Positions 38,925 through 54,399 of a DNA stretch of 64,000 nucleotides are shown here, in pieces. Within the stretch, counting starts at the first letter, position 1, and every line of letters starts with the position of its first letter. This DNA is from Alphaproteobacteria bacterium. Lineage in GTDB: Bacteria > Pseudomonadota > Alphaproteobacteria > CACIAM-22H2. The stretch is taken from assembly GCA_035457725.1 (NCBI GenBank), contig DATIBC010000041.1, forward strand, positions 260-64,259. Reading direction: 5' to 3'. The translations under genes were made by a program, and so were the position numbers. Below the pieces are notes generated by a model. The model saw nothing but the letters and a program-made list of their open reading frames with translations, did no database searches and had not been told where the DNA came from.

Positions 38925-40042
38925 GCGAACTCGGCGCGAATCTTGGCGCTGTGCTGGCCCAGCGCCGGAACATCGCCCAACGAAGGCGGTACGCCGACGA
39001 TTTGCGCCGGCGGCGCGGGAATGTCGACCGGGCCGTTCTCGGTCTCGACGCGCACCCGCCGCAATTGCGGATGGCGCGAAAAATCCGCCACCGAATTCAC
39101 CTCGCCATAGGCGATCTGGGCAGCGCGCAAGCGGGCAACGAGCTCGTTGCGATCGAGCGCACCGAAGCTCTCCTGGACTAGCGCATCGACCAAGGCGCGG
39201 TTCCTGACGCGCGCCACGTTGTCCTTGAACTCGGCGCGTGCGGCCAGCGAAGCATCGCCCAGAACCTCGGCGCACATATTCGCCCACTCGCGCTCATTCT
39301 GGATCGAGATGACGATCGGCTTGCCGTCCCTGGTCGTGAACACGCCGTAAGGGGCGACCGAGGGATGCGCAAGACCAACCCGATCCGGGGCCTTGCCGAG
39401 ATAATCATGGTGAAGCAACGGCACGGTCATCCACTCCGCCATGCCGTCGAAAAGCGAGACCTTGATCGCGCATCCCTCGCCGGTGCGGTCGCGGCGAATC
39501 AGCGCCTCGAGGATCGCCATGTAGGCGTACATGCCGGCGCCGATGTCGCAAACCGACACCCCGACGCGCCCTGGCCCTTCAGGCCGCCCGGTGACCGCGG
39601 CAAGACCGGACTCGGCTTGGACCAGGAGATCATACGATTTCATCGCTGCGTATGGGCCTTCGTCGCCATATCCCGAGATGTCGCAAGTAATGAGACGCCG
39701 GAACTCTCGCCGCAGGCCGCTCGAGCCGAAGCCAGCGCGGGCCGCCGCTCCCGGAAGCAGGTTTTGGATGAACACGTCGGCCCGCGCGATCATCCGGCGC
39801 AGCAGTGCGGCGTCGGTATCGTTCTTGATGTCGAGGACCAGCGACTCCTTGCCGCGATTGAGCCAGACGAAATAGCTGGCCAGGCCGCGCGCCGCCTGAT
39901 CGTAGCCGCGCGCGAAGTCGCCCTCGCTACGCTCGATCTTGATGACGCGCGCGCCGGCGTCGGCCAACCGCGAGGAACAGTAAGGCGCCGCCACCGCCTG
40001 TTCGAGCGACACCACCAACAATCCGTTGAAGGTGGGCGTCAT
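38921..40042 (-). CDS. family III CoA-transferase (CaiB/BaiF)
   Basis: CaiB/BaiF family signature (GLLVVSLEQAVAAPYCS..LADAGARVIKIE) and conserved Asp region. Confidence 0.8.
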   Translation of the reverse strand: MTPTFNGLLVVSLEQAVAAPYCSSRLADAGARVIKIERSEGDFARGYDQAARGLASYFVWLNRGKESLVLDIKNDTDAALLRRMIARADVFIQNLLPGAAARAGFGSSGLRREFRRLITCDISGYGDEGPYAAMKSYDLLVQAESGLAAVTGRPEGPGRVGVSVCDIGAGMYAYMAILEALIRRDRTGEGCAIKVSLFDGMAEWMTVPLLHHDYLGKAPDRVGLAHPSVAPYGVFTTRDGKPIVISIQNEREWANMCAEVLGDASLAARAEFKDNVARVRNRALVDALVQESFGALDRNELVARLRAAQIAYGEVNSVADFSRHPQLRRVRVETENGPVDIPAPPAQIVGVPPSLGDVPALGQHSAKIRAEFA

Positions 40043-40043
40043 G

Positions 40044-41204
40044 TCAGTAGGAACGCGGCAGGCCGAGCACGTGCTCGGCCAGATAGGAAAGAATCAAATT
40101 GGTCGAGATCGGTGCCACCTGGTAAAGGCGAGCTTCGCGAAACTTGCGCTCGACGTCGTATTCTTCCGCGAAGCCGAACCCGCCATGCGTCTGCAAGCAC
40201 ATATCCGCGGCCTGCCATGAGGCGTCAGCGGCCAGCAACTTCGCCATGTTCGCCTGCGGGCCGCACGGCTGTCCGGAGTCGAACCGCGCGATCGCCTCGC
40301 GAACCATCAGCGCCGCCGCCTCGCGCGCGGCGTAGGCGCGCGCGATCGGAAACTGCACGCCCTGGTTCTGTCCGATCGGTCTACCGAAGACGACACGCGA
40401 CTTGGCGTAGTCGCTCGCCTTGGCGATGAACCAGCTTGCGTCGCCGACGCATTCGGCGGCGATCAGCATCCGCTCGACGTTCATTCCATCGAGAATGTAG
40501 TGGAAGCCCTTGCCCTCCTCGCCGATCAGGTTCTCGGCTGAGATCTCAAGGTTGTCGAAGAAAACCTCGGTCGCAGCGTGATTGATCATGGCGCGGAGCG
40601 GCCGGACGGTGAGCCCCTTGCCGAGCGCCTCGCGCATGTCGACCAGGAACACCGATAGGCCGTCGGTGCGTTTGTTTGCCTTGTCGCGCGGCGTGGTGCG
40701 GGCGAGCAGCAGCATCAAGTCGGAATGCTCGGCGCGGCTGGTCCATACTTTCTGTCCGTTGACGACGTAGCGCCCTCCCTGTCGTACCGCCACCGTCCGA
40801 ATCGCCGTGGTATCGCTTCCCGCGGTCGGTTCGGTGACGCCGAACGCCTGCAGGCGCACCGCTCCCGACGCGATGAGCGGCAGCCAGCGCGATTTTTGTT
40901 CCTGACTTCCGTGCTTGAGCAGCGTCCCCATGGTGTACATTTGGGCATGGCACGCTGCCCCGTTGCCGCCAGCGGCGTGGATCTCCTCGAGAATCGTCGC
41001 CGCTGCGGCGACGCCGAGTCCGCTGCCGCCGAATTCCTCCGGAATCAACACCGCCAGCATGCCGGCGTCGGAGAGCGCCTTGACAAATTCGCTGGGATAG
41101 CGCCGATCGCGATCGAGCGCGCGCCAATACTCGCCCGGGAAGCCGGCGCAAAGCGACCTCACCGATTCGCGGATCTGCGTCAGCTCCTCCCCGTCGTGCG
41201 CCAT
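40044..41204 (-). CDS. acyl-CoA dehydrogenase
   Basis: ACAD N, middle and C domains (GVTEPTAGSD, C-terminal Q..GG.G). 2-nt gap to the CoA-transferase. Confidence 0.85.
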   Translation of the reverse strand: MAHDGEELTQIRESVRSLCAGFPGEYWRALDRDRRYPSEFVKALSDAGMLAVLIPEEFGGSGLGVAAAATILEEIHAAGGNGAACHAQMYTMGTLLKHGSQEQKSRWLPLIASGAVRLQAFGVTEPTAGSDTTAIRTVAVRQGGRYVVNGQKVWTSRAEHSDLMLLLARTTPRDKANKRTDGLSVFLVDMREALGKGLTVRPLRAMINHAATEVFFDNLEISAENLIGEEGKGFHYILDGMNVERMLIAAECVGDASWFIAKASDYAKSRVVFGRPIGQNQGVQFPIARAYAAREAAALMVREAIARFDSGQPCGPQANMAKLLAADASWQAADMCLQTHGGFGFAEEYDVERKFREARLYQVAPISTNLILSYLAEHVLGLPRSY

Positions 41205-41278: not shown

Positions 41279-41962
41279 ATGAGCGTTCGCAGCAATCACC
41301 ACGTGATCCGCGAACTTCTGCCGCTCAAGGGCAGGCGCGTGGTCGATGTCGGCTGTGGCGAGGGCGCATTGACACGATTTCTTGCCGGCGAAGGAGCGCA
41401 TGTCGTCGGCGTCGAACCTGGCCCAGCGACGATCGAAAAGGCCCGCGCCGCGCCGCCGGTCGCCGACGAGGAGTTCGTGGCCGGACTTGGCGAAAAGCTT
41501 CCATTTCCGGATGCGTCGGTCGACGCGGTCGTCTACATGAACGCGCTTCATCATGTTGCTGTCGCCGATCAGGAGGAGGCGGTGCGCGAGGCGGGGCGCG
41601 TGCTCAAGCCCGGCGGGTATTTCTTGGTGGTCGAACCGCTGGCCGAGGGGGATTATTTCGAGCTCGTCCGGACGATCGAGGACGAAACCGAGGTCCGCGC
41701 CGCGGCGTATCGCGCGCTCGGCGCGGCTGAACGCGCCGGGCTGAGCGCGGAACGCGAGTTGGTCTATGATGCCCCGGTCAAGTACGCCGATTTCTCGGCC
41801 TTCGAGGCGCGAATGAAGTCGGTCGACCCGGCGCGGGCACCGACAGTCGATCGATTTCGCGAGGATCTGAAGCGCCGCTTTGCCGCCGCGGGCAAAGCAG
41901 GCGCCGACGGTGTGCATTTTCTCCAGCCGACGCGGGCCAACCTTTTCGTCAAATCGGGCTAG
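41279..41962 (+). CDS. class I SAM-dependent methyltransferase
   Basis: Motif I VVDVGCGEG and motif post-II LKPGGYFLVVE. Confidence 0.75.
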   Translation: MSVRSNHHVIRELLPLKGRRVVDVGCGEGALTRFLAGEGAHVVGVEPGPATIEKARAAPPVADEEFVAGLGEKLPFPDASVDAVVYMNALHHVAVADQEEAVREAGRVLKPGGYFLVVEPLAEGDYFELVRTIEDETEVRAAAYRALGAAERAGLSAERELVYDAPVKYADFSAFEARMKSVDPARAPTVDRFREDLKRRFAAAGKAGADGVHFLQPTRANLFVKSG

Positions 41963-42957
41963 CCGGCGCGACGAACCAGCTCGTCGTAGAGGGCGTCGGG
42001 AATCACCAGGCCGTCGACCGCCGCCTTGGCGCGAAGCTTTAGGCGGCGTTCGCCGGGAAGCCGCGCGCCAGGTTGGGCGAGGATCGCGTTGGCCAATTCG
42101 GCGACGCGTTGAGCGAACCCGTGGCCGACGAATCGGATCGGATCGAAGATGAGGAAGAACTGGCCGACCCGCGGCGGCGGACCCTTGGCGTCGAAGAACG
42201 AGCTAGCCTCGTATCCGAACCGTGCGCCGGTCAGCGCCGCGGCGAGGATCTCGGCCATCAGCACCAATGCATATCCCTTGGCGTCGCCCATCGGCAGCAT
42301 GGTGCCTGCCAACGCCGCTTTGGCGTCGGTCGTCGGGCGGCCCTCGGCGTCGAGCGCCCAGCCTTCTGGAATCGCCTCGCCCTTTTGCGCGGCGACCATG
42401 ATCTTGCCACGCGCGACCTTCGACAGCGATAAATCGATGACCAATGGCGGAGCGCCGCGCCGCGGACAGGCGAAGGCGATTGGATTGGTGCCGAAGATCG
42501 CTCGGCGGCCACCCCAGGGCGCGATGCCCGCGGGCGAGTTGCCAAACACCAGCGCCGCCAGCCCGTCGGCGGCCAGCGGTTCGACATGATAACCGGCGGC
42601 TCCGAAATGATGCGAGTTGGTGACCGCAAGCGCGCACACGCCGGTATCGCGAACCAGTATGCGGGCCTGCGCTAGCCCCAGCGCGATCGCGGGAAAGGCA
42701 AAACCATCCGCTGCATCGACAACGAGAACCGCCGGCGCGGTCTGTCGCAGCGTCGGCGACGCCCTGCCATCGACCTTGCCGGCCACGGCCTGATCGGCGT
42801 ACGCGGGAACGCGCGACAGGCCGTGACCGGCGAGTCCGTCGGCCTCGGCGGCGACGAGCGCGCGGGCGACCGCTTCGGCGTTCTCGACCGTGGCGCCGGC
42901 GGCAACGAGCGCTCGCACCGCTAGGCCATGCGCCCGGACGAGCGACAACGCCGTCAT
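41959..42957 (-). CDS. Ldh family-2 (malate/L-lactate/sulfolactate dehydrogenase, ComC-like) oxidoreductase
   Basis: Ldh_2 family blocks (NSHHFGAAGY, GTNPIAFA). Start ATG overlaps the upstream stop (ATGA). Confidence 0.7.
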   Translation of the reverse strand: MTALSLVRAHGLAVRALVAAGATVENAEAVARALVAAEADGLAGHGLSRVPAYADQAVAGKVDGRASPTLRQTAPAVLVVDAADGFAFPAIALGLAQARILVRDTGVCALAVTNSHHFGAAGYHVEPLAADGLAALVFGNSPAGIAPWGGRRAIFGTNPIAFACPRRGAPPLVIDLSLSKVARGKIMVAAQKGEAIPEGWALDAEGRPTTDAKAALAGTMLPMGDAKGYALVLMAEILAAALTGARFGYEASSFFDAKGPPPRVGQFFLIFDPIRFVGHGFAQRVAELANAILAQPGARLPGERRLKLRAKAAVDGLVIPDALYDELVRRAG

Positions 42958-43907
42958 CGGCCACGCTCGGTGAGCGCCTTGCGGACATTCGCTACCGTCA
43001 TAGACGACACCCGGCGATTGGCTTCCTCGGTTACCCCGGCGATGTGCGGCGTCAGCCACAGCCGCGGCGCGCCGACGAAGATCGAGGCCTTGGCCAGAGG
43101 TTCGCTCGCGAACACGTCGAGCACGGCACCGCCGAGTCTGCCCTCCCTGAGCGCCGCGACAAGCGCCGCCTCGTCGACGGTGCCGCCACGCGACGTATTG
43201 ATCAGGATCGCGCCCGGTTTCATCCGCGCCAGCGCCGCGCGATCGACCAAATTGCGGGTCGAAGGCAGCAACGGTACATGCATGCTGACGACGTCGCTGG
43301 TGGCGAGCAACGTCGCAAGGTCGATCGGCGTCGACCCGAGCTCGCGCCACGCCGGATGATCGGCCGAAACGCCAGGATCGTGGGCGACGATCTCGAGCTC
43401 GAAGCCGCGGGCGCGTCGCGCCACGGCGCGCGCGATCTCGCCGAACCCGATCAAGCCGAGGCGCTTGCCGCTCGCTTCGCGAAACATGAGCTCGTTACGC
43501 GGCCATTTCCCCGCCACCACCGCCTCGCTGGCATGCCACACGTCGCGCAACCCGATAAGCATGGCGGCAATGACGTATTCCGCCACCGAGGCCGTGTTGG
43601 CGCCCGAGGCGGGAAAGACGCGGATGCCCCGCCGCGTGCACTCGTCCATGTCGATATTGTCGAGCCCGACGCCGAGACGCCCGATGACCTTGAGTTGCCG
43701 GCACGCCGTGAGCACGTCGCCGCGCACTTGGGTGCGGTTGCGCACGATCAGCGCTGGAACCTCGGCGGCGAGCGCCATGATCTCGCCCGGCTTATCGACC
43801 AATTCGGGATCGTAATAAACGCGAAAATCGCGCGCGAGATCGTCGACCGCCCATGCATCGATGAACTCGGTGATGACGATGTCATGCATGACGGACCGGG
43901 GCCTCAT
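42954..43907 (-). CDS. D-isomer-specific 2-hydroxyacid dehydrogenase (NAD-binding)
   Basis: GLIGFGEIARAVA Rossmann motif and catalytic R/E/H arrangement. Alternative start at 43889. Confidence 0.75.
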   Translation of the reverse strand: MRPRSVMHDIVITEFIDAWAVDDLARDFRVYYDPELVDKPGEIMALAAEVPALIVRNRTQVRGDVLTACRQLKVIGRLGVGLDNIDMDECTRRGIRVFPASGANTASVAEYVIAAMLIGLRDVWHASEAVVAGKWPRNELMFREASGKRLGLIGFGEIARAVARRARGFELEIVAHDPGVSADHPAWRELGSTPIDLATLLATSDVVSMHVPLLPSTRNLVDRAALARMKPGAILINTSRGGTVDEAALVAALREGRLGGAVLDVFASEPLAKASIFVGAPRLWLTPHIAGVTEEANRRVSSMTVANVRKALTERGR

Positions 43908-43989
43908 GACGCAGTGACCATTTACGCCGGCCGAGCTTCGTCCGGCGCTTTGTGTCGGTCAATGTCGTCCCGCTCGGATGGACGCATCG

Positions 43990-45714
43990 TCAGTCCGCGG
44001 CGGCGTCGCGCAGCAGCGTTTCGCCGGGCCGCACGCGCGTGAAGGCTACCGGCCGCATCTCGACGGAAGGATTGCTCCCGCTCATCTTGACGCAGGTATA
44101 AGTCGAGGTTGCAAGGTCCGATGTTGTTGGAAAGTCGTTGCGATAATGCGCGCCGCGCGAATCCTCGCGCGCCAGCGCCGCGGCGGCGATGGCACGGCTC
44201 ACCAGGATCAGGTTCTTGAGGTTGAGCCAATCGTGCCAGGTGAGATTGAACGCGAGCCCGTCGTCGGCCACGCCGATGGCGTCGAGCTCGGCATCGAGCG
44301 CTTCCAGCCTGTCGATGGCCCGCTTGAGTCCGCCGGCATCGCGCGCGATGCCGACCTCCTCCCACATGAGGTCGTGCAACGCCTCGCGCACCGCCTCGAC
44401 ATCGCCAGCGCCGCGCGTGAGCGGCGCGCGGGCGCTCTGGACCGCCTTCTCGATGGCCGCTTCGTCGGCCGCCCGCAGGCGCCCCTTCTCGGCGATCCAT
44501 TTCGCCATTGCGTCACCGGCGATGGCGCCGAAGACAGTTGAATTGGCGACCCCGTTGCCGCCAAGCCGATTGGCACCGTGGACTCCGCCTGTGTCCTCGC
44601 CGGCGGCGAACAGGCCGGGCAACTCCGTGGCGCACGATAGGTCGAAGATCACGCCGCCCATCATGTAATGCGCTGTCGGGACCACCTCGACGCGGCCGGC
44701 GGCGAGGTCGAAACCGCAGTCGGCGCAGCGCTCGACCATGCCCTTGAACTCCTTCCGCACGCGCTCGGCGCCGAGATGCGCCATCTGCAAGTACACGCCG
44801 CCCAGTTTCGTGCCGCCGCCCCGGCGAATCTGGTCGAAGATGGCGCGGCTCACCACGTCGCGGGTCGCGCGTTCGGCCCGCGGATCGTAGGCGGTCATGA
44901 ACCGCTCGCCGTTGCGGTCGAGCAGATGGCCGCCTGCGCCGCGCAGGCCCTCCTCGAGAACTGTGCCGGTCATGCGCGTGTCCGGCCCGGCTAGCAGGCC
45001 GGTGGGATGGAATTGCACCATCTCCATGTCGCGCAGCATCAGGCCGGCGCGTAGCGACATGGCCATGCCGTCGCACGATTTGTCGCCCGACGGCGTATGG
45101 TACTTGTACATCGTCGGACCGCCGCCGGTGGCGAGTAGCACGGCCTTCGCCTCGACGAAAACGAAGCTGCCGCCGCGCATGTCGATGAACAACGCCCCGG
45201 ATATCGCCTCGCCCGTCTCGCTTCTGATCAGTTCGATCGCGCGGTGATCTTCGAGACGGACGATGCCGCGCGCCCAAACCTGCTCGGCCAACCGATTGAC
45301 AATTTCGATTCCCGTCAGGTCGCCCTTGTGAACGGTGCGATCGAAGCTCTGACCGGCGAAAGCCTTCTGGTGAATCGTCCCGTCGGGATTGCGGTCGAAG
45401 AAGCAGCCGAATTCGTTCTCGAGCTCGCGGACCCGAGATTGGGCGCCGGTGACCAGCGCCCAGGCGAGATCCTGATCGTTGAGCCACTGCCCGCCCTCGA
45501 TCGTATCCATGAAATGGCGTTCGACCGAATCGCCCGGCGCCAGTGCCACGTTGTAGCCGCCCTGGACCATCCGCGTGCAGCCGCTCTTGCCGAGCAGGCC
45601 CTTGACGGCAATCGTGATCTTGAGCGCCGGGTCGGCTTGCAGCGCGTGCAGCGCGGCGAAAAGGCCCGCACCGCCGCTACCAAGGATAAGCATGTCGGTG
45701 ACAAGGCGCTTCAC
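43990..45714 (-). CDS. FAD-dependent flavoprotein of the succinate dehydrogenase / fumarate reductase / L-aspartate oxidase family
   Basis: FAD motif ILGSGGAGLFAA, active-site HPTG, C-terminal RLGGNGVANS.VFG. The covalent-FAD His position reads KSGCT (non-covalent type). GTG start overlapping the upstream stop (GTGA). Confidence 0.75.
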   Translation of the reverse strand: MKRLVTDMLILGSGGAGLFAALHALQADPALKITIAVKGLLGKSGCTRMVQGGYNVALAPGDSVERHFMDTIEGGQWLNDQDLAWALVTGAQSRVRELENEFGCFFDRNPDGTIHQKAFAGQSFDRTVHKGDLTGIEIVNRLAEQVWARGIVRLEDHRAIELIRSETGEAISGALFIDMRGGSFVFVEAKAVLLATGGGPTMYKYHTPSGDKSCDGMAMSLRAGLMLRDMEMVQFHPTGLLAGPDTRMTGTVLEEGLRGAGGHLLDRNGERFMTAYDPRAERATRDVVSRAIFDQIRRGGGTKLGGVYLQMAHLGAERVRKEFKGMVERCADCGFDLAAGRVEVVPTAHYMMGGVIFDLSCATELPGLFAAGEDTGGVHGANRLGGNGVANSTVFGAIAGDAMAKWIAEKGRLRAADEAAIEKAVQSARAPLTRGAGDVEAVREALHDLMWEEVGIARDAGGLKRAIDRLEALDAELDAIGVADDGLAFNLTWHDWLNLKNLILVSRAIAAAALAREDSRGAHYRNDFPTTSDLATSTYTCVKMSGSNPSVEMRPVAFTRVRPGETLLRDAAAD

Positions 45715-46322
45715 GCGCGAACGCCCATTTTCGCCAGCGCCGCAGCGCGCCGGCGTTGCGCGGCGGCCTTGACCGTCTCGTAGAGGCTGCCGCCGTGCGC
45801 ATCCATTGCGACAAGCAGCGGGCCGAACTCCTTGACCCGGAATTTCCACAGGCTTTCCGGATTGAGGTCATCGAGATCGACGTCGTCGATCGCATCGATC
45901 CACGTCGTCTCGAGCGCCGCGGTGCCGCCGATGACGGCGAGATAAGCGCCGCCGAAGCGAGCGAACGCCTCGGCCGATTCGGACCCCAGCCCGCCCTTGC
46001 CGATGACCAGCCGTACGCCGTACTGCGCCATCAGCGGACGCGTGAACCGCTCCATACGGGCGCTGGTCGTCGTTCCGACGCACACCGGTGCGTAGCCGGC
46101 AGGGTGGGCGGCCGACGTTTCGACCTTGCGAACGTTCGGCGCGGTGTGAATGACGGCGTGTCCGCGGAGTTCGAAGCGCGTCTTGCGGCCGCGATCGAAC
46201 ATGTGGATCAAGGTGGCGTCGCGGATTCCGAAAAGCGCGCCGTTCAGCGTCACGGTATCGTTTACCCTGAGCGCGCGCACCTCGGCCTCATCGAGCGGCG
46301 TGGCCAAATCGTGATGCGGCAT
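45711..46322 (-). CDS. Fe-S hydro-lyase beta subunit (class I fumarate hydratase / L(+)-tartrate dehydratase TtdB-like)
   Basis: 203 aa. TtdB/FumB C-terminal-domain-like (GKGG..., LVAMDAHGGSLY). Confidence 0.7.
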   Translation of the reverse strand: MPHHDLATPLDEAEVRALRVNDTVTLNGALFGIRDATLIHMFDRGRKTRFELRGHAVIHTAPNVRKVETSAAHPAGYAPVCVGTTTSARMERFTRPLMAQYGVRLVIGKGGLGSESAEAFARFGGAYLAVIGGTAALETTWIDAIDDVDLDDLNPESLWKFRVKEFGPLLVAMDAHGGSLYETVKAAAQRRRAAALAKMGVRA

Positions 46323-46325
46323 CGC

Positions 46326-47216
46326 TCAGAACCCGATTTCGACGCCTCGCGGCGTGAACAGCGCACTGGCACGGCGCGCCGAGTGGCATTGGATGTTGAC
46401 CGCGACTGGATTCATCGTGATATGCGTCGCCGCAAGCTCGACATGCACCGCGAACGCCGTGGCATCGCCGCCAAGACCCTGCGGTCCGATGCCCAGCCCG
46501 TTGACCGCCTCGCTCAGCATGCGCTCCAGCCTCGCCCCTTCGGCGTCGGCGCACACCGAGCCCAATGGTCGGGTCGACGCAACCTTGGCCAGGTGCATGC
46601 ACAGGTCGGACGTGCCGCCCACGCCCACGCCGACGATGGTCGGCGGACAGACCTTGCCTCCGGCCTCCATCACCTTGTCAATGACGAAGGTCTTGATTCC
46701 GTCGGCGCCGTCGGCCGGCACCAGCATCTTCAAGAACGATCCGTTCTCCGAGCCCGAGCCTTTCGGGATCATCTCCAGCCGCAACTCCCGCGGCCGGTCG
46801 GAGAAATCGATGTTGATCACCGGAACGCCCGGCCCGCAGCTCGTATGCGCGTTCGCGCGGGTCAACGGATGAACCACCGACGAGCGAAGCGGATAATCGC
46901 GCGTCGCCCGTTCCACGCCGCGACGGATCGCCTCTTTGAGCTGGGCCCCGTCAACCTCGACGTCGCGGCCGATCGTCACGTTGAAGATTGGGATTCCGGT
47001 GTCCTGGCACAACAAGTTGTCGGTCTTCTCGGCGACCTCGATGTTGCGCACCATCGTCGCCAGGATGGTCTTGGCGGTGGCGTCGGTTTCCGCGGCATCG
47101 AGGCGCGCGAAACCGTGCTTGACGTCGTCCGGGAGCAGCTTGAGCGCGCGGATGTATAGGAGCTTGGCGGTCTCCTCGATCGTCGACGGATCGACGCGAA
47201 GCCGCGCCGGGTTCAT
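46326..47216 (-). CDS. Fe-S hydro-lyase alpha subunit (class I fumarate hydratase / TtdA-like)
   Basis: CQDTG motif plus downstream Cys ligands. C-terminal LGIGPQGLGG block as in TtdA/FumA N-domain. ~297 aa. ATG overlaps the permease stop (ATGA). 5' ORF extension rejected. Confidence 0.7.
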   Translation of the reverse strand: MNPARLRVDPSTIEETAKLLYIRALKLLPDDVKHGFARLDAAETDATAKTILATMVRNIEVAEKTDNLLCQDTGIPIFNVTIGRDVEVDGAQLKEAIRRGVERATRDYPLRSSVVHPLTRANAHTSCGPGVPVINIDFSDRPRELRLEMIPKGSGSENGSFLKMLVPADGADGIKTFVIDKVMEAGGKVCPPTIVGVGVGGTSDLCMHLAKVASTRPLGSVCADAEGARLERMLSEAVNGLGIGPQGLGGDATAFAVHVELAATHITMNPVAVNIQCHSARRASALFTPRGVEIGF

Positions 47217-48103
47217 CGTTGCATGCCCCATTTGCGAACCGTATGCGTCTCGACCGTGCGGAACACCACGCTTTCGACCAGCAGGCCGATGATGATCACC
47301 GCGGTAAGCCCGGCGAAGACATACGCCGTTTCGAGCTGATTGCGGTTCTCGAAGATGAACCAGCCAAGCCCGCCCGAGCGCGACGAGACTCCGAACACCA
47401 GTTCGGCGGCGATGAGCGTGCGCCAAGCGAACGCCCAACCGATCTTGAGGCCGGCGAGGATCGAGGGAAAGGCGGCCGGAATCAGGATTTGAGCCACGTA
47501 GCGAATCCCTCGCAAGCCGTAATTCTGCCCCGCCATGCGCTGCGCCTCGGCGACGGCGAGGAAACCGGTATGCGTGTTGAGCGCCACCGCCCAGAGCACC
47601 GAGTGGATGATGACGAATACCAGGCTCGGGATGCCGAGGCCGAACCAAAGCAGCGCCAGCGGCAACAACGCAATCGCCGGCAACGGGTTGAACATCGCCG
47701 TCAGGGTCGACAGAAGATCGGTGCCGATGCGCGTCGAGACGGCAAGCGCGGTGAACACCGCAGCGAGGAAGATCCCGGCCGCGTAGCCCATGGTGAGAAC
47801 CTGGATCGACGTCCACACGCGCTCGAGCAACGGCCCACGCACGCTGGCGTCCCACAGCGACCAGATGGTCTCGCTGAACGAAGGGAACATCAGCGGATTG
47901 TTGATCGACCGCGAATAGCTTTCCCACAGTATCGTCAACAGCACGAGAATGAACGCGCGCCGCACAGCGGTGATGTTGGTCAGCCGCTCCCACGCCGAAA
48001 GCGGCAGCTCGACGGCGGCGATATTGGCGGCACCGACATTTTCGCGGACGAATTCCGGCCGCACCGGCGGCGACGACCGGGCGGCGGCGCTTGCCTCAGC
48101 CAT
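47213..48103 (-). CDS. ABC transporter permease (NitT/TauT family)
   Basis: Six-TM BPD_transp_1 permease with EAA-like loop. Start trimmed to a Met just upstream of the ATPase stop. Confidence 0.7.
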   Translation of the reverse strand: MAEASAAARSSPPVRPEFVRENVGAANIAAVELPLSAWERLTNITAVRRAFILVLLTILWESYSRSINNPLMFPSFSETIWSLWDASVRGPLLERVWTSIQVLTMGYAAGIFLAAVFTALAVSTRIGTDLLSTLTAMFNPLPAIALLPLALLWFGLGIPSLVFVIIHSVLWAVALNTHTGFLAVAEAQRMAGQNYGLRGIRYVAQILIPAAFPSILAGLKIGWAFAWRTLIAAELVFGVSSRSGGLGWFIFENRNQLETAYVFAGLTAVIIIGLLVESVVFRTVETHTVRKWGMQR

Positions 48104-48938
48104 GAACCTTCGACTCCTCTTCGATGCGCTCGGCGAACAGCATCGCGTGGATGCGGTTCTGGAGCGACATGAAACCCTCTCCTCCCTGCTGTGCATGGCC
48201 GAATTGATGCGCATTGAGCTCGGCACGCACGCGGCCTGGATGCGGACTCATCACAAGGATCCGCGACCCAATGACGATCGCCTCTTCGATCGAATGGGTG
48301 ACGAACAAGACGGTGAAGCGAATCTCGTCCCAAAGCTGCAGCAGCTCTTCCTGCATCTTGCGGCGCGTCAGTGCGTCGAGCGCCGCGAAGGGCTCGTCCA
48401 TCAGCAGGATATCGGGTTCCATGGCCATGGCGCGCGCGATCGCCACGCGCTGCTTCATGCCCCCCGAGAGCATGTGCGGATGGATATCGGAGAACTGGGT
48501 GAGATTGACCTTGTCGATATACGTTCGCGCGCGGGCCTCGGCCTCGCGGCGCGGATATTTTCCCGAGACGAGCATCGGAAACATCACGTTCTGCTCGACC
48601 GTTTTCCACGGCAGGAGTTGGTCGAACTCCTGGAACACCATCATGCGATCGGGCCCCGGCCGTTCGACCGGACGCCCGGCGAGACGTATCGTGCCCTCGA
48701 CCGGTTTCATGAACCCGGCGACGCCCTTGAGCAGCGTCGACTTGCCGCAGCCGGACGGACCGAGAAGGACGAAACGGTCCGCAGGATGGACCCGGAAACT
48801 TACCCGGTAGGTCGCGGTGACGAGATGATCGCGGGTCTTGTACTGCAGTGTGACGCCGTCGACCTCGAGCAATGGCGCCGCGGAATCCGTCGCCGCCGCG
48901 CCATTGCCGCCCGTTCCCGTCGCACTGGCGTCGGCCAT
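48096..48938 (-). CDS. ABC transporter ATP-binding protein (NitT/TauT family)
   Basis: Walker A GPSGCGKST, signature LSGGMKQR, Walker B ILLMDEPFAALD. Confidence 0.8.
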   Translation of the reverse strand: MADASATGTGGNGAAATDSAAPLLEVDGVTLQYKTRDHLVTATYRVSFRVHPADRFVLLGPSGCGKSTLLKGVAGFMKPVEGTIRLAGRPVERPGPDRMMVFQEFDQLLPWKTVEQNVMFPMLVSGKYPRREAEARARTYIDKVNLTQFSDIHPHMLSGGMKQRVAIARAMAMEPDILLMDEPFAALDALTRRKMQEELLQLWDEIRFTVLFVTHSIEEAIVIGSRILVMSPHPGRVRAELNAHQFGHAQQGGEGFMSLQNRIHAMLFAERIEEESKVHG

Positions 48939-49960
48939 CAGCTGCCCAGTTTTTCGTGAACCTCGGGGAAGAACAAATCCTTCCACGAGTCCGGCTTGAC
49001 CTTGATCGAACCGACCCTGGACATGAACTCGACGTATTTCATGACGTTGTTCGGCGTGAGTGTGAAAACATTTTCGGGGTCCTTGAGGATCTTCTCGACG
49101 AACTGCACCGGCAGCCTTGAATTCTCGGCCTTGACCCAAAGCTCCGCCGCGCGTCTCCGGTCGGAGTTGATGAAGATCATGGCCTCTTCGAGCGCGTCGA
49201 GAACCGCGCGATAGGTGCGCGGGTTCTCGTCGTGGAATTTCTGCGTCGTCCAGACCAGGTTGAACGTCGCCGGTCCGCCGAGCACCTCATAGGAGCTGAC
49301 TACGCGGCGGACGCGCTGGTCCTCGAGTTGCTGATACTGGAAGGGGGCGCTGGAAAAGTGCGCCGTGATCTCCGAGCGCCCCGACATCATCGCGCTCATC
49401 CCGTCGGGATGCGCCATCGACACGGTGAGTTTGTCGAGCACGTCGTGCTTGCCTGGCCCGAATTCCTTCTCGGCCGCCATCTGCAGCGTCACGGCCTGGA
49501 TCGATACCTTGACGGCGGGAAGCGCGATACGATCCTTGTCGGTGAAATCCTTGAGCGATGTCACGTCGGGATTGATCGTGTTGAGGTAAATCGGCATCGA
49601 GTTGATCGCCGAAATCGCCTTGACGTTGAGGTTGCCCTTGGTGCGCGCCCAGATCGTCACCAGCGGCCCGACGCCGCCCGCGGCGACGTCGAGGCTGCCG
49701 GACAGCAGCGCATCGTTCATCGGAGCGCCGGCCGAGAGCCGGCTCCACTCGACTTTGATGTCGCCAAGTCCCGACGATTTTGCGTGCTTCTCGATGAGCT
49801 TCCGCTCCTCGATCACCGTCAACGGCAGGTAGCTGACGCCGAACTGCTTGGCGATGCGGAGTTCCTTCGTCTCCTGCGCGGCGGCTTGACCGACGGTGAA
49901 CGCGAGCGCCAAGACGCCGCCCGAAAGCGCAACAGCGCGAAGGGTCCGAAGCAATGTCAT
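48938..49960 (-). CDS. periplasmic substrate-binding protein of NitT/TauT (sulfonate/nitrate/taurine-type, NMT1-like) ABC transporter
   Basis: Signal peptide and NMT1/SsuA-like fold. First gene of the transporter trio. Confidence 0.7.
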   Translation of the reverse strand: MTLLRTLRAVALSGGVLALAFTVGQAAAQETKELRIAKQFGVSYLPLTVIEERKLIEKHAKSSGLGDIKVEWSRLSAGAPMNDALLSGSLDVAAGGVGPLVTIWARTKGNLNVKAISAINSMPIYLNTINPDVTSLKDFTDKDRIALPAVKVSIQAVTLQMAAEKEFGPGKHDVLDKLTVSMAHPDGMSAMMSGRSEITAHFSSAPFQYQQLEDQRVRRVVSSYEVLGGPATFNLVWTTQKFHDENPRTYRAVLDALEEAMIFINSDRRRAAELWVKAENSRLPVQFVEKILKDPENVFTLTPNNVMKYVEFMSRVGSIKVKPDSWKDLFFPEVHEKLGS

Positions 49961-50053
49961 CGTCGATGTCCTCCCTTTGAACTTTATTCCGTCAGCCGTG
50001 CGACCGACTATCCAAGCCGAAGTCTAGCACGCTCGCCGGCCGTGCAAACCACC

Positions 50054-50779
50054 TCAGATGACCAGGGCGACGCCCGAGAACATGAGCAACCACAAGACGA
50101 TGCGGCGGAATTGCGCGTCGTCGACGCGGGCATAGGCCCGCGTGCCCAGCCACAGGCCGAGAGCCAGCGCCGGCAGGGTCGGGAGGAACAGCCATGCGGC
50201 CTCGCGCGTCACGCCGCCGGTGCCACCGAGCCAGGCAAGCGCCAGGAACTGCATCGCCACGATGTAAGGCTGGTAGACGCCGCGCTGCTCGTCCTTGGGC
50301 CAGCCCCGCAGTCCGCACCAGATCGTCGGGATCGCACCGGACAGTCCGGCGAGCCCACCCATTAGCCCGCCGACAAGGCCGATCGCGCCGTCGGCCGCAC
50401 GACCTCCAAAATCCAGCGGCGCCGGCTGCGGCCGCAGCAGCATGTAGCCGCTATAGGCGACCAGGAACACACCGACGCCGAAACGGAACGCCCCGGGATC
50501 GGCGATGCGCAACAGCTCGACCCCGAACGGCACGCCGAGCGCGCCGCCAACCAAAAACGGCCATAACCGGCGCCAGCGAATAGCGTGGCGGAGCGCCGGC
50601 AAAGTAGCGAATTGCGACAGGATACTGCCGGCAAGAATGACCGGCACCGCCTCGATCGGCGGCAGGACGTTGAGCAGCACTCCCGAGGCGACGAGGGCGA
50701 ACGCGAAGCCGGCAAGGCCCGAGGCGAACGCGGCGAGGAAAGCGCCGACAGCGATCGCCAGTCCCACGGCAAGCGTCAC
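50054..50779 (-). CDS. TauE/SafE family (DUF81) membrane exporter, SuyZ-like putative sulfite exporter
   Basis: Multi-TM Gly-rich DUF81 repeats. Start placed at a GTG just after the SdhC-like stop; the ORF may extend to 50863. Confidence 0.6.
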   Translation of the reverse strand: MTLAVGLAIAVGAFLAAFASGLAGFAFALVASGVLLNVLPPIEAVPVILAGSILSQFATLPALRHAIRWRRLWPFLVGGALGVPFGVELLRIADPGAFRFGVGVFLVAYSGYMLLRPQPAPLDFGGRAADGAIGLVGGLMGGLAGLSGAIPTIWCGLRGWPKDEQRGVYQPYIVAMQFLALAWLGGTGGVTREAAWLFLPTLPALALGLWLGTRAYARVDDAQFRRIVLWLLMFSGVALVI

Positions 50780-51156
50780 GCGGGGCTCGTCAGGTTGAGG
50801 AGAAACAGAAGGCCGACGGCGACGCCGAATCCCATGGCAAGCGCCGCCATCGTTTTTTGCCAATCCCGCCAGGCGAGGAACTCGATGGCCAATACGCGGA
50901 GTCCGCCGGCGAGATGGACGGCAAGGAGGATCACCAACCCGGTCTCGATGAGTTTGACCAGCGGCCGTTCCGACCAGCGAAGAAAGCCGTCAAGCGCCGC
51001 CTCCCCCTGCAGTGCCTGGCCAAGCGCCCAAAAATGCGCCGGCAGAAAAAAGGCGAGAAGCACTCCTGACATACGATGCACCAAGAATGCGACATAGTTT
51101 GCGTGCGCGCGGCCACGCCACGCCGACACGACGTGTCCGGCTTTCACAGCTTTCAT
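50776..51156 (-). CDS. succinate-dehydrogenase-type membrane anchor subunit (SdhC-like, cytochrome b)
   Basis: Three TM helices, HRxSG motif (LVHRMSGVLLAF), His in second helix. Confidence 0.6.
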   Translation of the reverse strand: MKAVKAGHVVSAWRGRAHANYVAFLVHRMSGVLLAFFLPAHFWALGQALQGEAALDGFLRWSERPLVKLIETGLVILLAVHLAGGLRVLAIEFLAWRDWQKTMAALAMGFGVAVGLLFLLNLTSPA

Positions 51157-51506
51157 GAGAAGAGTCCGCCGACGGCGCGCCAGCCGAGCCAAGCGAGCGA
51201 TAGCGCCGTGGCCAGGGTCGCGACGTCGAGCGAACGTCCGCGCCAGAGGGTCATTTCGCGAACGATGGCGCGCAGCCCCAATGGCGCGTGGATCGCCACC
51301 GCGAGCACGAAGATCGAATAGAAAGCGAGCCAGCCAAAGCTACCGCGCGTGCGGCCGAGAATCTCCGCGGCGCTGAGGCCCCCGCGCACCGCGAGTACGA
51401 CGGTCGCCAGATGAACCACGACGCAAACCGCCAACACCAGCGCGCTCGCCCGCTGCCCGAGCCACAGCCAAGTTTCGTGCTTTACCGAGACGTCGGTCGA
51501 GCGCAT
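51153..51506 (-). CDS. succinate-dehydrogenase-type membrane anchor subunit (SdhD-like)
   Basis: 118 aa, three TM helices with conserved His (AIHAPLGLR). 4-nt overlap with the SdhC-like gene. Confidence 0.55.
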   Translation of the reverse strand: MRSTDVSVKHETWLWLGQRASALVLAVCVVVHLATVVLAVRGGLSAAEILGRTRGSFGWLAFYSIFVLAVAIHAPLGLRAIVREMTLWRGRSLDVATLATALSLAWLGWRAVGGLFS

Positions 51507-51517
51507 CGCATGGGCTT

Positions 51518-52240
51518 CTACAGCGCGCCCTTGATCGCCGCACGCGCCACTCGGCGCTTCAAGCCGGCGATCGAAGCCGTAGGATTGAGCTGCTTCGGGC
51601 AGTATTCGCGGCACCCCTGCTGACTGTGGCAAGCATGACAACCGGCGTCGCCTGCGACCGCGCCGAGGCGTTCGGCTTGCGCTCCATCGCGAACGTCGTT
51701 GACCAGCGTCCATGCGCGATTGAGCGCGGCCGGTCCCAGGTAATCGGCATTCCAGCGCACGACATCACATGCCGCGTAGCAGACGCCGCAGCCGATGCAT
51801 TCGATCGCCGCATCAGCGGCGGCGCGGTCGTTGGCCGATGGCGGCACCAAGGCGAAGTCGTCCGATCGCGATGCGGCGGGTGAGAAAACCCCCTTGGCGC
51901 GCGTCCATTTCTCGAAGAATTCGGTCATGTCGCAGACGAGATCCTTGATCACCGGAAAATTCCGCAATGGCGCCACGGTCAGCCGGCCGCCCCGTGTCGC
52001 CTTGTCGACATGGGTGCGGCAAGTCCAACGCGGCCGCCCGTTGACGGTCATGGCGCATGATCCGCACATGCCGACCCGGCAAGCGAAGCGATAGCTCAGC
52101 GTGCGATCGAGATGCCGTTGGACCCAGGTGACCACGTCGAGCACTGTCTGGCTTGGCCGCCGCGGCACCACGTACTCGACGAATCGGCCTTCGCTACCGC
52201 CTCGCCAGACCGACACCTGCAATGTCGCTTGCGCGCTCAA
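51518..52240 (-). CDS. succinate dehydrogenase / fumarate reductase iron-sulfur subunit (SdhB/FrdB-like)
   Basis: 2Fe-2S motif CRVGMCGSCAM. 4Fe-4S and 3Fe-4S motifs CIGCGVCYAAC...CHACHSQQGCREYCP. Confidence 0.85.
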   Translation of the reverse strand: MSAQATLQVSVWRGGSEGRFVEYVVPRRPSQTVLDVVTWVQRHLDRTLSYRFACRVGMCGSCAMTVNGRPRWTCRTHVDKATRGGRLTVAPLRNFPVIKDLVCDMTEFFEKWTRAKGVFSPAASRSDDFALVPPSANDRAAADAAIECIGCGVCYAACDVVRWNADYLGPAALNRAWTLVNDVRDGAQAERLGAVAGDAGCHACHSQQGCREYCPKQLNPTASIAGLKRRVARAAIKGAL

Positions 52241-52286
52241 GCGCCTCCTCGCGCGGTTATCTCGCCTTGCCTCCCAACCTGGAAAA

Positions 52287-53495
52287 TCAGGCGCTCTGGA
52301 AGAGCTTGGTCAGCACGAACTCGCGATGGCCAAGCGCCTCGGCGGCGGTCAGCCGGCCGTTGCATGTGCGGATCATGATGTCGATCAGCCGGTCTCCGGC
52401 CTCGTCCAGCGTCATTTCGCGCCGCAGTATCCCTGAGACGTCGAGGTCGATGTGCTCGCTCATCTCGCGTGCGGTTTTCGGATTGGCGGTCAGCTTGATC
52501 ACGGGTTCGATCGGATTGCCGATCACGTTGCCCTGTCCGGTCGGGAAGAGGTGGACGACGAATCCCGCCGCGGCCTGCAGGGTCACGCACTCTGCAGCGG
52601 CGGAAGACGTGTCCATGAAGTAAAGGCCGGGCCCCTTGCCGGGCGATTGCGCCGGCTTGAGGACGTCGATGTATTTCGTTTTCTTGCCGATCTTGGCCAG
52701 GTTGCCGAACGCCTTTTCCTCGATGGTCGTAAGGCCGCCGGCGATGTTGCCCTTGGTCGGCTGCGATTCCGAAAGATCGTTGGTCTTGTGCCGCTCGATC
52801 ATTGCGTTGTAGGCCCGCCATGTGGCGAGGAACTTCTCGCCAATATCCTTGGTTATGCCGCGGCTGGCGCAGACCTTCTCGGCGCCGGTAATCTCGGAAG
52901 TTTCGCCAAAACAGGTGGTGGCGCCGAGCGGATCGATCTTGTCGATGAGATCGCCGACCGTCGGGCACGAGGCGAGACCCGAGGTGGTGTCGCTTTCGCC
53001 GCATTTCGTCGAAACCCACAGCTCGTCGATGCGGCACGGCTCGCGCTGCAACTCGCTCGCCCAATGTAGAAAATCCTTCGCCGCGCGCGAGGCGTCGGCG
53101 ATCGTCTTGAGATCGCCCTTGCCCTCGATGGCGAACCCTGCCACCGGCTTGCCGGTCTTCTTAATTCCATCGACGACGCGGCCCGTCCAGCCCGGCTCGA
53201 TGCCGATAACGACGCACGCGGCGACGTTCGGGCTAGCGCCGGTGCCGATGAGCGTGCGGAAATGAAGTTCGAGGTCCTCGCCGAATTGCAGTCGACCGTA
53301 AGCATGCGGCAGCGCCAGGACGCCCTTGATATTGTTGCCCACGGCCTCGGCGGCGGCGTTCGACAGATCGTCGAGCGGCAGGACGATCACGTGATTGCGC
53401 ACGCCGACGCGGCCGTTGGCGCGCCGGTATCCTTGGAAAGCAAGGTCGCGGCCGTTCGCGCGACGCTTGGCAGGCGCTTTCGCCATGGCTACCAC
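52287..53495 (-). CDS. UxaA-family dehydratase large subunit, (2R)-sulfolactate sulfo-lyase SuyB-like
   Basis: ~400 aa altronate/galactarate-dehydratase C-domain homologue lacking its own SAF domain. Size and split architecture match SuyB (~42 kDa). Confidence 0.6.
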
Positions 53496-53773
53496 CTTTT
53501 GGTCTTGACGTTGTGGACGTGGGCATGCCGGCCCTTGCCGATCGCCGATACGGCGCGGCCGATGTCGTGACCGTACTTGAGCAGCGTCTCGCCCTTCTTG
53601 ATCTCCTTGAGGGCGATTTTGTGGCCGAGCGGAATCGCGTCCAGCGCCTTGAGCCTCACGGTGGAATCGCCCTCCATCACCCAGCCGGTGAGCGCGTCGC
53701 CGGGCTTTATGCCTTCGACGACGACCACGCCCACTGTGTCGGCTTTGTCGTGCACGATAAAATGAGTGGTCAT
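53489..53773 (-). CDS. SAF-domain small subunit of split UxaA-family dehydratase, SuyA-like
   Basis: 94 aa SAF/AFP-like domain (GD.L...M.G...V.L...I..GHKIALK.I..G). Overlaps the large-subunit start. Confidence 0.55.
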
Positions 53774-54327: not shown

Positions 54328-54399
54328 ATGGGTTGCCGCGCCTCGGCGGCGCGGCCTATAGTCCTGCCCGCCCGTCAACCGCCACGGATCCGCCACCAC

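Follow-up and report, generated by a model that had tools for sequence, protein, structure and literature searches.

Why should the genes of a predicted sulfolactate-cleaving enzyme share an operon with counterparts of succinate dehydrogenase (SDH) and fumarase? The question is raised by a 64,000-nucleotide stretch of DNA from an alphaproteobacterium (contig DATIBC010000041.1; below called the window), where 14 open reading frames (ORFs), numbered here g1 to g14 from the upstream end and all on the minus strand, occupy positions 41959-53773. A preliminary description had proposed that the SDH-like and fumarase-like enzymes act on the sulfonate analogues of succinate, fumarate, and malate, and thereby feed the sulfo-lyase SuyAB. 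Comparative genomics supports this proposal through a conserved sulfonate neighbourhood, a remodelled flavoprotein, and a second type of gene cluster found in other organisms. We are rather confident that the SDH-like enzyme and the hydratase form a module that acts on a sulfonated succinate or fumarate analogue in organosulfonate catabolism. The narrower claim is that the operon serves the catabolism of a C3 organosulfonate, for which 3-sulfopropanoate, succinate's sulfonate analogue, is the most likely candidate; it would be converted via sulfoacrylate and sulfolactate to pyruvate and sulfite. This we regard as somewhat probable.

Organization of the Operon

The ORF calls leave no space for further genes between the 14, and the co-directional arrangement first described is exact in its coordinates. 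Seven of the 13 junctions are overlaps (1-8 nucleotides), three are gaps of 2-11 nucleotides, and the remaining three are gaps of 46, 93, and 100 nucleotides. Pfam also places every gene in the family originally named for it, the match of g1 being weak. The G+C content is about 65% throughout the window, and the composition is unbroken at the operon. Spacing and conservation suggest that the 14 genes are co-transcribed; scans for promoter and terminator consensus sequences gave nothing above chance. An identical gene set in identical order is found in an independent contig of 4.45 Mb (L001), and rearranged versions of the cluster are present in dozens of further species. Because of this recurrence, the arrangement is not a product of chance.

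Predicted Sulfolactate Cleavage by SuyAB

The first gene, g1 (53489..53773), encodes a SuyA-like small subunit of 94 amino acids with a weak match to the Pfam family SAF (18 bits, cut-off 21). Its stop precedes by 2 nucleotides the start of g2 (52287..53486), whose product of 399 amino acids contains the domains GD_AH_second and GD_AH_C. An adjacent pair of a small SAF protein and a large GD_AH protein is the two-subunit form of SuyAB. The g2 protein is 68.0% identical to SuyB of Cupriavidus pinatubonensis, which is encoded downstream of hpsN, hpsO, a major facilitator superfamily gene, and a gene in the hpsP position, that is, in a dihydroxypropanesulfonate (DHPS) cluster where SuyAB completes the pathway. 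It is 68.9% identical to SuyB of Paracoccus versutus, encoded in the layout GntR-SuyA-SuyB-'putative sulfate exporter' (SuyR-SuyAB-SuyZ), and 70% identical to the homologue in Methylobacterium radiotolerans. For g1 the identity is 54% to the protein in the SuyA position of C. pinatubonensis and 51% to that of P. versutus.

When g2 was compared by tblastn with 72,556 plasmids and chromids, 13 records matched at 64-72% identity, followed by a clean gap. Below the gap there are 351 records with less than 60% identity to g2, the best among the matches listed being at about 39%. The NCBIfam model for the galactarate dehydratase GarD gives g2 no more than 141 bits (cut-off 731), and the solved structures among the matches for SuyB are of galactarate dehydratase only. 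Since the identity to SuyB is 68-70%, whereas other UxaA proteins stay below 40%, g1 and g2 are by sequence true SuyAB orthologues, predicted to cleave (R)-3-sulfolactate. The likeness to SuyA and SuyB, rather than to altronate or galactarate dehydratases, that had been read from the UxaA-type pair is thereby confirmed.

At the other end of the operon, g13 (42954..43889, with an alternative ATG at 43907) encodes an SlcC-like D-2-hydroxyacid dehydrogenase of 311 amino acids with the domains 2-Hacid_dh (PF00389) and 2-Hacid_dh_C (PF02826). It overlaps by 4 nucleotides with g14 (41959..42957), which encodes a ComC-like dehydrogenase of 332 amino acids from the Ldh_2 family (PF02615, 342 bits). 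According to the supplementary tables of a recent study, SlcC and ComC as characterised in Chromohalobacter salexigens belong to the same Pfam families as g13 and g14, and in Paracoccus wurundjeri the genes for GntR, SuyA, SuyB, SlcC, and ComC are contiguous in that order (PMC12421959). A contiguous block of SuyA, SuyB, the 2-hydroxyacid dehydrogenase, and the Ldh_2 protein is also found in the related loci L006, L007, L019, L021, L048, and L076. The g13 protein is 57% identical to the cluster homologues of P. versutus and M. radiotolerans, and g14 is 55-58% identical to its own cluster homologues. The top NCBIfam match of g14 is L-sulfolactate dehydrogenase (NF040650), presumably a model of the archaeal enzyme, followed by ureidoglycolate dehydrogenase (190 bits). 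The earlier assignment of g14 to ComC thus stands as to family and best match, but not at the level of the curated cut-off, which it does not reach (197 bits, cut-off 500). With the Pfam families of SlcC and ComC present and the same contiguous block found in many relatives, g1, g2, g13, and g14 are treated here as a putative SuyAB-SlcC-ComC set.

The operon shares with the SuyAB-SlcC-ComC pathway of Paracoccus pantotrophus, C. salexigens, and P. wurundjeri the SuyAB orthologues, the two dehydrogenase families, and a sulfite exporter alongside. It differs in being interrupted by genes that those clusters lack, which encode the enzyme of the complex II type, the hydratase with its Fe-S cluster, and the ABC importer, and in having an exporter of the TauE type instead of a YeiH-type SuyZ. 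A GntR regulator accompanies the known clusters and also occurs in loci related to the window; most of these loci have an adjoining GntR or LysR regulator gene, while none adjoins the operon in the window.

A Remodelled Enzyme of the Complex II Type

Four genes encode the SDH-like enzyme. The flavoprotein g12 (43990..45714, 574 amino acids, FAD_binding_2 and Succ_DH_flav_C) resembles SdhA and FrdA and is the proposed 3-sulfopropanoate dehydrogenase. The iron-sulfur subunit g3 (51518..52240, 240 amino acids, Fer2_3 and Fer4) resembles SdhB and FrdB, while g4 (51153..51506, 117 amino acids) and g5 (50776..51156, 126 amino acids) are an SdhD-like and an SdhC-like cytochrome b membrane anchor, both of the Sdh_cyt family. 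Relatives of g12 make up more than 120 database clusters at 73% identity or above, and were found in at least 592 species when one genome was scanned for each GTDB species. They are at present annotated as 'fumarate reductase', 'L-aspartate oxidase', or 'FAD-binding protein'.

The g12 protein stays under every curated NCBIfam cut-off for SdhA, FrdA, TfrA, and NadB. Its best score is for TfrA (531 bits, cut-off 718), and it obtains 446 bits with sdhA_frdA_Gneg (cut-off 567) and 365 with nadB (cut-off 453). The identity to Escherichia coli SdhA and FrdA, estimated by eye from the alignment, is about 35%. The active site was surveyed in 323 sequences, comprising g12, 82 orthologues from the loci, and 240 database representatives, with E. 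coli SdhA, FrdA, and NadB as references. The representatives include a marine roseobacter/Hoeflea clade, the plasmid-borne members of which are about 60-63% identical to g12.

The catalytic residues are retained as H236, R285, H349, and R383 (His232, Arg287, His355, and Arg390 in FrdA). The histidine that links the flavin adenine dinucleotide (FAD) in FrdA (His44) and SdhA (His45) is, on the other hand, replaced by Cys46 in all 323 sequences. Equally invariant are the replacement of the substrate-contacting threonine (Thr244 in FrdA, Thr254 in SdhA) by Glu254, an extra arginine, Arg282, in place of FrdA Leu284, and the glycine G388. A six-residue loop insertion directly before Glu254, with the consensus G-x-x-T-R-M-T-G, was likewise invariant in the survey. 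At the position of NadB Glu121 g12 has Phe119, as do SdhA and FrdA, and it carries the SdhA-type Gln51 where FrdA has Glu49. These invariant changes, together with scores below all SdhA, FrdA, and NadB equivalog cut-offs, show that the flavoprotein, first described as SdhA/NadB-like, is not a housekeeping SdhA, FrdA, or NadB.

The partner subunits are more conventional. The g3 protein passes the generic model TIGR00384 (dhsB) and contains all the canonical cluster cysteines. It also has an extra Cys201, present in 59 of 60 family members and located three residues ahead of the first 3Fe-4S ligand (C-x2-C-x5-C-x3-C-P), and the third cluster might for this reason be a 4Fe-4S centre. In g4 the histidine aligning with the haem ligand H71 of E. 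coli SdhD is conserved in the family. The g5 protein scores 53.2 bits with TIGR02970 (cut-off 52.3), and its HRxSG motif and the histidine aligning with SdhC H84 are conserved.

With complex II of type C, as in E. coli SdhCDAB, the enzyme thus shares the four subunits (flavoprotein, Fe-S subunit, and two small haem-b anchors), the catalytic His/Arg/His/Arg set, the Fe-S cysteines, and the haem ligands. It departs from complex II in lacking the histidyl site of FAD attachment, the substrate threonine, and a curated SdhA, FrdA, or TfrA score, and also through Cys46, Glu254, the extra arginine, and the loop insertion in g12, the extra cysteine in g3, and the gene order and neighbourhood of a sulfonate operon. 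As judged from these features, g12, g3, g4, and g5 encode a membrane-bound enzyme of the complex II type with a remodelled active site. The remodelling argues against succinate as the substrate without itself naming the compound that takes its place. The strict conservation of Cys46 suggests that this residue has a role, perhaps in an 8-alpha-S-cysteinyl (thioether) link to FAD, rather than that the link has simply been lost.

The Fe-S Hydro-Lyase

The hydro-lyase is encoded by g10 (46326..47216, 296 amino acids; Fumerase, 298 bits) and g11 (45711..46322, 203 amino acids; Fumerase_C), the alpha and beta subunits of an Fe-S enzyme of the class-I fumarase/TtdA type that is the proposed sulfoacrylate hydratase. 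The g10 protein matches the alpha subunit of the Methanocaldococcus jannaschii fumarase (7xky_A) with E=1.6e-70, and g11 matches the two-subunit fumarase of the same organism with 2.6e-29. The three cysteine ligands of the [4Fe-4S] cluster are retained in g10, in the motifs CQDTG, CPP, and QC. In an alignment to 5l2r, the g11 equivalents of R421, T467, T468, R471, and K491 of the Leishmania fumarate hydratase, which there bind malate, are conserved. The g11 protein stays under the cut-offs of the beta-subunit equivalogs (129 bits against 269, and 149 against 264) and reaches that of a domain model only (145.5 against 145.15). The site is built for a dianion, and fits sulfoacrylate and sulfolactate as well as fumarate and malate.

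The fold families, the Fe-S ligands, and the substrate-binding residues are thus those of class-I fumarase and TtdAB (M. jannaschii 7xky, E. coli TtdAB). What sets the enzyme apart is its context; the window-type hydratase always adjoins the divergent flavoprotein and sulfonate or sulfite genes, and in other clades a distant second hydratase lineage or a class-II lyase takes its place.

Putative Transporters of the Substrate and of Sulfite

The importer and exporter genes are located within the operon, between those for the anchors and those for the hydratase. The product of g6 (50054..50779) is a putative sulfite exporter of the TauE/SafE family (PF01925), with 241 amino acids, about six hydrophobic segments, and a full-length match to TauE (111 bits, cut-off 32.6). 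It had been described as SuyZ-like, which holds as an analogy of function but not as homology, since the exporter beside the Paracoccus SuyAB is a YeiH or 'putative sulfate exporter' protein that is not homologous to TauE.

The NitT/TauT-type ABC importer consists of a periplasmic binding protein (g7, 48938..49960, 340 amino acids, NMT1_2), an ATPase (g8, 48096..48938, 280 amino acids, ABC_tran), and a permease (g9, 47213..48103, 296 amino acids, BPD_transp_1). The best NCBIfam matches are the SsuA family for g7 (73 bits, cut-off 164), the taurine ABC ATPase TauB for g8 (215, cut-off 357), and SaoP, TauC (77, cut-off 342), and SsuC for g9, all of the latter below cut-off. At the family level the importer therefore resembles the SsuABC/TauABC type, while the curated scores are not reached.

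Conservation of the Gene Neighbourhood

To what extent the genes belong together was judged from 80 species loci out of the at least 592, the queries being proteins of the window and of two loci inspected at first. Co-occurrence was counted in the 41 loci of the window's kind (type 1) with 8 kb or more of sequence to either side of the flavoprotein gene, a partner being scored when within 10 kb. The SdhB-like subunit, the anchors, and the hydratase are each present in 39 of the 41 loci, and the SDH-like genes occur together with the hydratase in 39. A SuyB orthologue (at least 55% identity) is found in 27, a ComC-like gene in 32, an SlcC-like gene in 15, and any of these three in 35. An SsuA-type ABC system occurs in 15 loci, a TctC-type binding protein in 24, and a TauE gene in 20. 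At least one sulfonate marker is present in 37 of the 41, so the conserved association with sulfonate genes that the preliminary description required is found. Clustering of the leftover ORFs revealed a second TauE subfamily, TauD-family dioxygenases, proteins of the sulfite oxidase family, TAXI-TRAP carriers, and LysR regulators.

The plasmid pMRAD01 of M. radiotolerans JCM 2831 carries the whole set and a DctA carrier. Further cultured carriers of the cluster are Imbroritus primus, Paraburkholderia domus, P. diazotrophica, Curvibacter delicatus, Massilia niastensis, Parapusillimonas granuli, Polynucleobacter campilacus, and Bordetella petrii.

Some genes of these loci have no counterpart in the window. 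A thiamine pyrophosphate-dependent enzyme resembling acetolactate synthase and 2-hydroxyacyl-CoA lyase is encoded directly after the flavoprotein or SuyB in L001 (11738-13351), L003 (1603-3273), L092 (11363-12988), and many others, in total in 21 of the 41 type-1 loci and in five of the eight type-2 loci described below; it may process sulfopyruvate. The enzyme was considered as a candidate for Xsc and rejected with NCBIfam scores of 172-189 bits against cut-offs of 620-676, and being absent from the window it has no part in the operon. A gene of the enolase superfamily (mandelate racemase/muconate lactonising enzyme) lies within the cluster in the alphaproteobacterial L001 (7389-8507) and in L095 from Sulfitobacter (16308-17447), and might encode an alternative sulfolactate racemase or a dehydratase.

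A Second Type of Cluster

Eight loci, from Paracoccus, Sulfitobacter, Marivita, Hoeflea, Roseobacter sinensis, Halovulum, Denitrobaculum, and a Pseudomonas plasmid, have the gene order SdhB-anchor-anchor-flavoprotein-hydratase and are here called type 2. In P. versutus the type-2 flavoprotein shares 63% identity with g12, but the two hydratase subunits share only 34% with g10 and 30% with g11. The same flavoprotein has therefore acquired a hydratase of another lineage as its partner. TauE is encoded in all eight loci and a carrier of the tripartite tricarboxylate transporter family in seven. A gene of the sulfite oxidase family follows the hydratase directly, abutting or overlapping it, in three of the eight loci, and is within 10 kb in a fourth. 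SuyAB is within 10 kb in none of the eight, and SlcC/ComC only in P. versutus, about 6 kb away.

The plasmid of Pseudomonas sp. MPC6 has the most informative arrangement. Here the start of a gene for a coenzyme A (CoA)-acylating (methyl)malonate-semialdehyde dehydrogenase (L097, 15328-16818) abuts the stop of the hydratase beta gene. A YeiH-type exporter gene comes next, sulfite oxidase and cytochrome c genes are nearby, TauE is present, and SuyAB is not. As the cluster handles sulfite without a known C-S lyase, the module of SDH-like enzyme and hydratase would itself deliver the sulfite, and this suggests desulfonation by hydration alone. In the simplest chemistry, water would add to C3 of sulfoacrylate, and the resulting bisulfite adduct (of malonate semialdehyde) would then decompose. 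Such a reaction fits a C3 substrate and not sulfosuccinate, because the latter would give oxaloacetate, and the type-2 clusters consequently favour a C3 sulfonate.

Aminotransferase genes were also observed beside type-2 clusters, one of class III on a Roseobacter sinensis-type contig (L100, 6355-7671) and one for a pyridoxal phosphate-dependent enzyme (L095, 5214-6413); their presence agrees with homotaurine being the precursor of 3-sulfopropanoate. In the Halovulum locus (L101) a CoA-transferase gene lies between the hydratase genes.

A further variant is found on a plasmid of the haloarchaeon Natribaculum luteum (L096, 5485-12453), which encodes a flavoprotein 49% identical to g12 and an Fe-S subunit. 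The neighbours are a UxaA pair, TauE, a TAXI-TRAP carrier, and a class-II 'argininosuccinate lyase', and neither a class-I hydratase nor Sdh_cyt anchors are annotated there.

The Proposed Pathway and Its Alternatives

In the pathway that we propose, the ABC importer (g7-g9) would bring 3-sulfopropanoate into the cell, where the haem-b-containing enzyme of the complex II type (g12, g3, and g4/g5) would oxidise it to 3-sulfoacrylate, the electrons passing to quinone. The hydratase (g10/g11) would add water at C2 to give 3-sulfolactate, the enantiomers of which could be interconverted through sulfopyruvate by the g13 and g14 dehydrogenases. SuyAB (g1/g2) would then split (R)-sulfolactate into pyruvate and sulfite, and TauE (g6) would export the sulfite.

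Several points weigh against this pathway. The substrate, the redox direction, the side of water addition, and all the activities are inferred, each step from the genomic context. Loss of the His-FAD link in His44 mutants of E. coli FrdA abolishes succinate oxidation, and with a cysteine at the flavinylation site g12 may be a poor dehydrogenase unless it forms a thioether link or acts on a substrate couple of lower potential. Glu254, in place of the substrate threonine, is no obvious ligand for a sulfonate, but it may pair with Arg282 or with the arginine of the inserted loop and so reshape the pocket. The g10 protein exceeds the NCBIfam cut-off of the 'fumarate hydratase' equivalog (309 bits, cut-off 276), and the conserved hydratase residues do not separate sulfoacrylate from fumarate. 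The binding protein g7 is without a characterised relative, a search of solved structures having given no related protein. Finally, judging from the type-2 clusters, sulfite might be released by the hydration step alone, in which case SuyAB of the window could serve a parallel route for sulfolactate.

This last point leads to a different fate for sulfoacrylate. If water were added at C3, the resulting 3-hydroxy-3-sulfopropanoate, a bisulfite adduct, would give malonate semialdehyde and sulfite, and SuyAB, SlcC, and ComC would handle imported sulfolactate in a branch of its own under shared regulation. Such a scheme agrees with the type-2 clusters, where TauE and sulfite oxidase occur without SuyAB and, in one case, the hydratase gene is directly followed by that of a malonate-semialdehyde dehydrogenase, and also with the type-1 loci L047, L052, and L065, where the module of SDH-like enzyme and hydratase is found without SuyAB. 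For the window it nevertheless seems unlikely; the hydratase is of another lineage than the type-2 one (30-34% identity), SuyB, ComC, or SlcC accompanies the large majority of type-1 loci (35/41), and there is no malonate-semialdehyde dehydrogenase gene in or beside the operon. The substrate could also be sulfosuccinate or another sulfonated dicarboxylate, converted to sulfomalate and, by oxidative decarboxylation, to sulfopyruvate and on to sulfolactate for SuyAB. None of the four residues with which SdhA/FrdA bind dicarboxylates has been lost, nor any of the malate-binding residues of class-I fumarases, and the invariant Arg282 could bind a third anionic group. The malonate-semialdehyde dehydrogenase of the Pseudomonas variant, however, fits a C3 and not a C4 product, and the DctA carrier of the M. 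radiotolerans cluster, which is of the C4-dicarboxylate type, suits a dianion. Sulfosuccinate is moreover mainly a man-made compound, whereas the cluster is distributed over the at least 592 species in marine, freshwater, and soil habitats. Nothing on sulfosuccinate desulfonation was found in the literature searched, and we consider this substrate quite improbable.

The enzyme might instead work in the opposite direction, as a quinol:sulfoacrylate reductase, with sulfolactate being dehydrated, sulfoacrylate acting as an electron sink, and 3-sulfopropanoate as the product. E. coli FrdA variants with non-covalent FAD reduce fumarate but cannot oxidise succinate, and both the absence of the flavinylated histidine from all the surveyed sequences and the best NCBIfam model, that of the reductase TfrA, would agree with a reductase. 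But the carriers are mostly aerobic bacteria, the position of FrdA Glu49 is occupied by glutamine as in SdhA, and the operon contains an uptake system, SuyAB, and a sulfite exporter (with sulfite oxidase in type 2), while a pathway ending in 3-sulfopropanoate releases no sulfite at that step. This makes the reductive direction very improbable, and scarcely more can be said for the view that ordinary enzymes for succinate and fumarate, tartrate, or mesaconate merely lie beside a sulfolactate cluster. Although the fumarase and dhsB cut-offs passed by g10 and g3 could be taken in that sense, as could the names 'fumarate hydratase' and 'succinate dehydrogenase' given to orthologues by the Prokaryotic Genome Annotation Pipeline, the flavoprotein has invariant active-site substitutions, the type-2 sulfite oxidase gene abuts or overlaps the hydratase gene, and the importer and TauE genes are inside the operon in addition to the sulfonate neighbourhood of 37 of the 41 loci. 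Catabolism of tartrate or a sugar acid, which had been put forward at the outset as the alternative reading, is largely excluded by the SuyB identity gap (68-70% versus below 40%) and by the same neighbourhood, and was rejected. The least credible proposal is a NadB-like flavoprotein that would dehydrogenate the aspartate analogue L-cysteate to sulfopyruvate, which ComC would then reduce for SuyAB. P. pantotrophus does degrade cysteate via sulfopyruvate and SuyAB, g12 obtains 365 bits with the NadB model, and Glu254 could bind the amino group. Here too the evidence points the other way, as Phe119 replaces NadB Glu121 just as in SdhA and FrdA, and the flavoprotein gene, whereas NadB is a soluble enzyme that stands alone, is always accompanied by Fe-S, anchor, and hydratase genes, the hydratase being superfluous in such a scheme. 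A NadB-like cysteate oxidase was rejected on these grounds.

Relation to Known Pathways and Significance

Homotaurine is one source of 3-sulfopropanoate; another is DHPS (a product of sulfoquinovose), from which anaerobes of the gut and of the environment form it. In 2024 its degradation by bacteria was stated not to have been reported, yet the same article cites an unpublished Konstanz thesis (J. Mayer) that proposed a route from homotaurine via 3-sulfopropanoate and sulfoacrylate to sulfolactate in Roseovarius nubinhibens ISM (PMC11489063). The intermediates are those suggested here for the window, and the citing sentence names no genes or enzymes. A review from January 2026 describes the mechanism for 3-sulfopropanoate as still unclear for Bilophila (PMC12890257). 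No genes for the catabolism of 3-sulfopropanoate or sulfoacrylate were found in the literature searched. The original claim of an undescribed pathway therefore has to be divided, the assignment of genes and enzymes being new while the chemical route had already been proposed in the thesis. R. nubinhibens is not named among the best 120 matches listed for a Sulfitobacter orthologue, all of which are roseobacter or Hoeflea proteins at least 84% identical to it.

Sulfoacrylate is a real metabolite. In the bacterial route to coenzyme M (XcbB/XcbC), enzymes both form and consume it as a stable compound, and it is made there by a class-II enzyme of the 'argininosuccinate lyase' superfamily (PMC9457059). 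Besides this intermediate, the coenzyme M pathway has in common with the clusters a ComA/XcbB-like gene in some from betaproteobacteria and an argininosuccinate lyase-like enzyme in the haloarchaeal one. It differs from the window in being biosynthetic, in using class-II enzymes (aspartase/fumarase superfamily) with elimination of phosphate, and in having no flavoprotein and Fe-S hydratase. The ComA-like gene (phosphosulfolactate synthase family), which is unexpected in a catabolic cluster, lies at 4951-7174 in L003/L004 and is also present in L010, L018, L046, and L064, mostly together with a gene of the sulfatase/alkaline phosphatase family.

All the enzyme families of the operon are known; the novelty appears to lie in the remodelling of complex II and in a sulfonate as the substrate of these families. 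The cluster provides concrete candidate genes for the breakdown of 3-sulfopropanoate, and among its carriers are culturable strains with complete sequences, namely M. radiotolerans JCM 2831, P. versutus UW1, and I. primus LMG 32992, so that the question is directly testable. If the proposed reaction is correct, the chemistry of complex II would be extended to a sulfonate substrate, and the invariant loss of the flavinylated histidine constitutes a natural test of why the His-FAD link exists. The flavoprotein family comprises hundreds of clusters at 90% identity, from marine roseobacters, freshwater Polynucleobacter, and soil Burkholderiales. Given this abundance in at least 592 species, it may represent a sizeable and currently mis-annotated sink in the organosulfur cycle.

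A more far-reaching view, which we put forward tentatively and which may well prove wrong, is that a very widespread but so far unrecognised branch of the complex II superfamily consists of 3-sulfopropanoate:quinone oxidoreductases that hold their FAD through the invariant cysteine as a thioether or non-covalently. Two unrelated lineages of Fe-S sulfoacrylate hydratases would accompany them, one producing sulfolactate for SuyAB and the other hydrating the sulfonated carbon, with spontaneous breakage of the C-S bond. Hydration at the sulfonated carbon would then be a new, hydration-driven form of desulfonation.

Genes Flanking the Operon

Three minus-strand genes beyond the downstream end of the operon (38067..41204), assigned by Pfam and NCBIfam, are possibly associated with it. 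They encode an acyl-CoA dehydrogenase (40044-41204), a family-III CoA-transferase (38921-40042), and an Htd2/FAS1_DH-like hydratase (about 38073-38900). In NCBIfam the acyl-CoA dehydrogenase comes closest to acryloyl-CoA reductase (225 bits) and 3-sulfinopropanoyl-CoA desulfinase (198 bits), without reaching either cut-off. In L001 the trio directly follows the ComC-like gene, and it may hint at a CoA-dependent branch.

In the window the trio is separated from the operon by a gene for a class-I S-adenosylmethionine-dependent methyltransferase on the plus strand (41279-41962), which converges on g14 and overlaps its stop by 4 nucleotides. This gene is not at the corresponding position in L001 and looks like a local insertion. 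On the other side, genes for a gamma-glutamylcyclotransferase-like protein and a gamma-glutamyltranspeptidase (53908-56250, plus strand) are divergent from the start of the operon.

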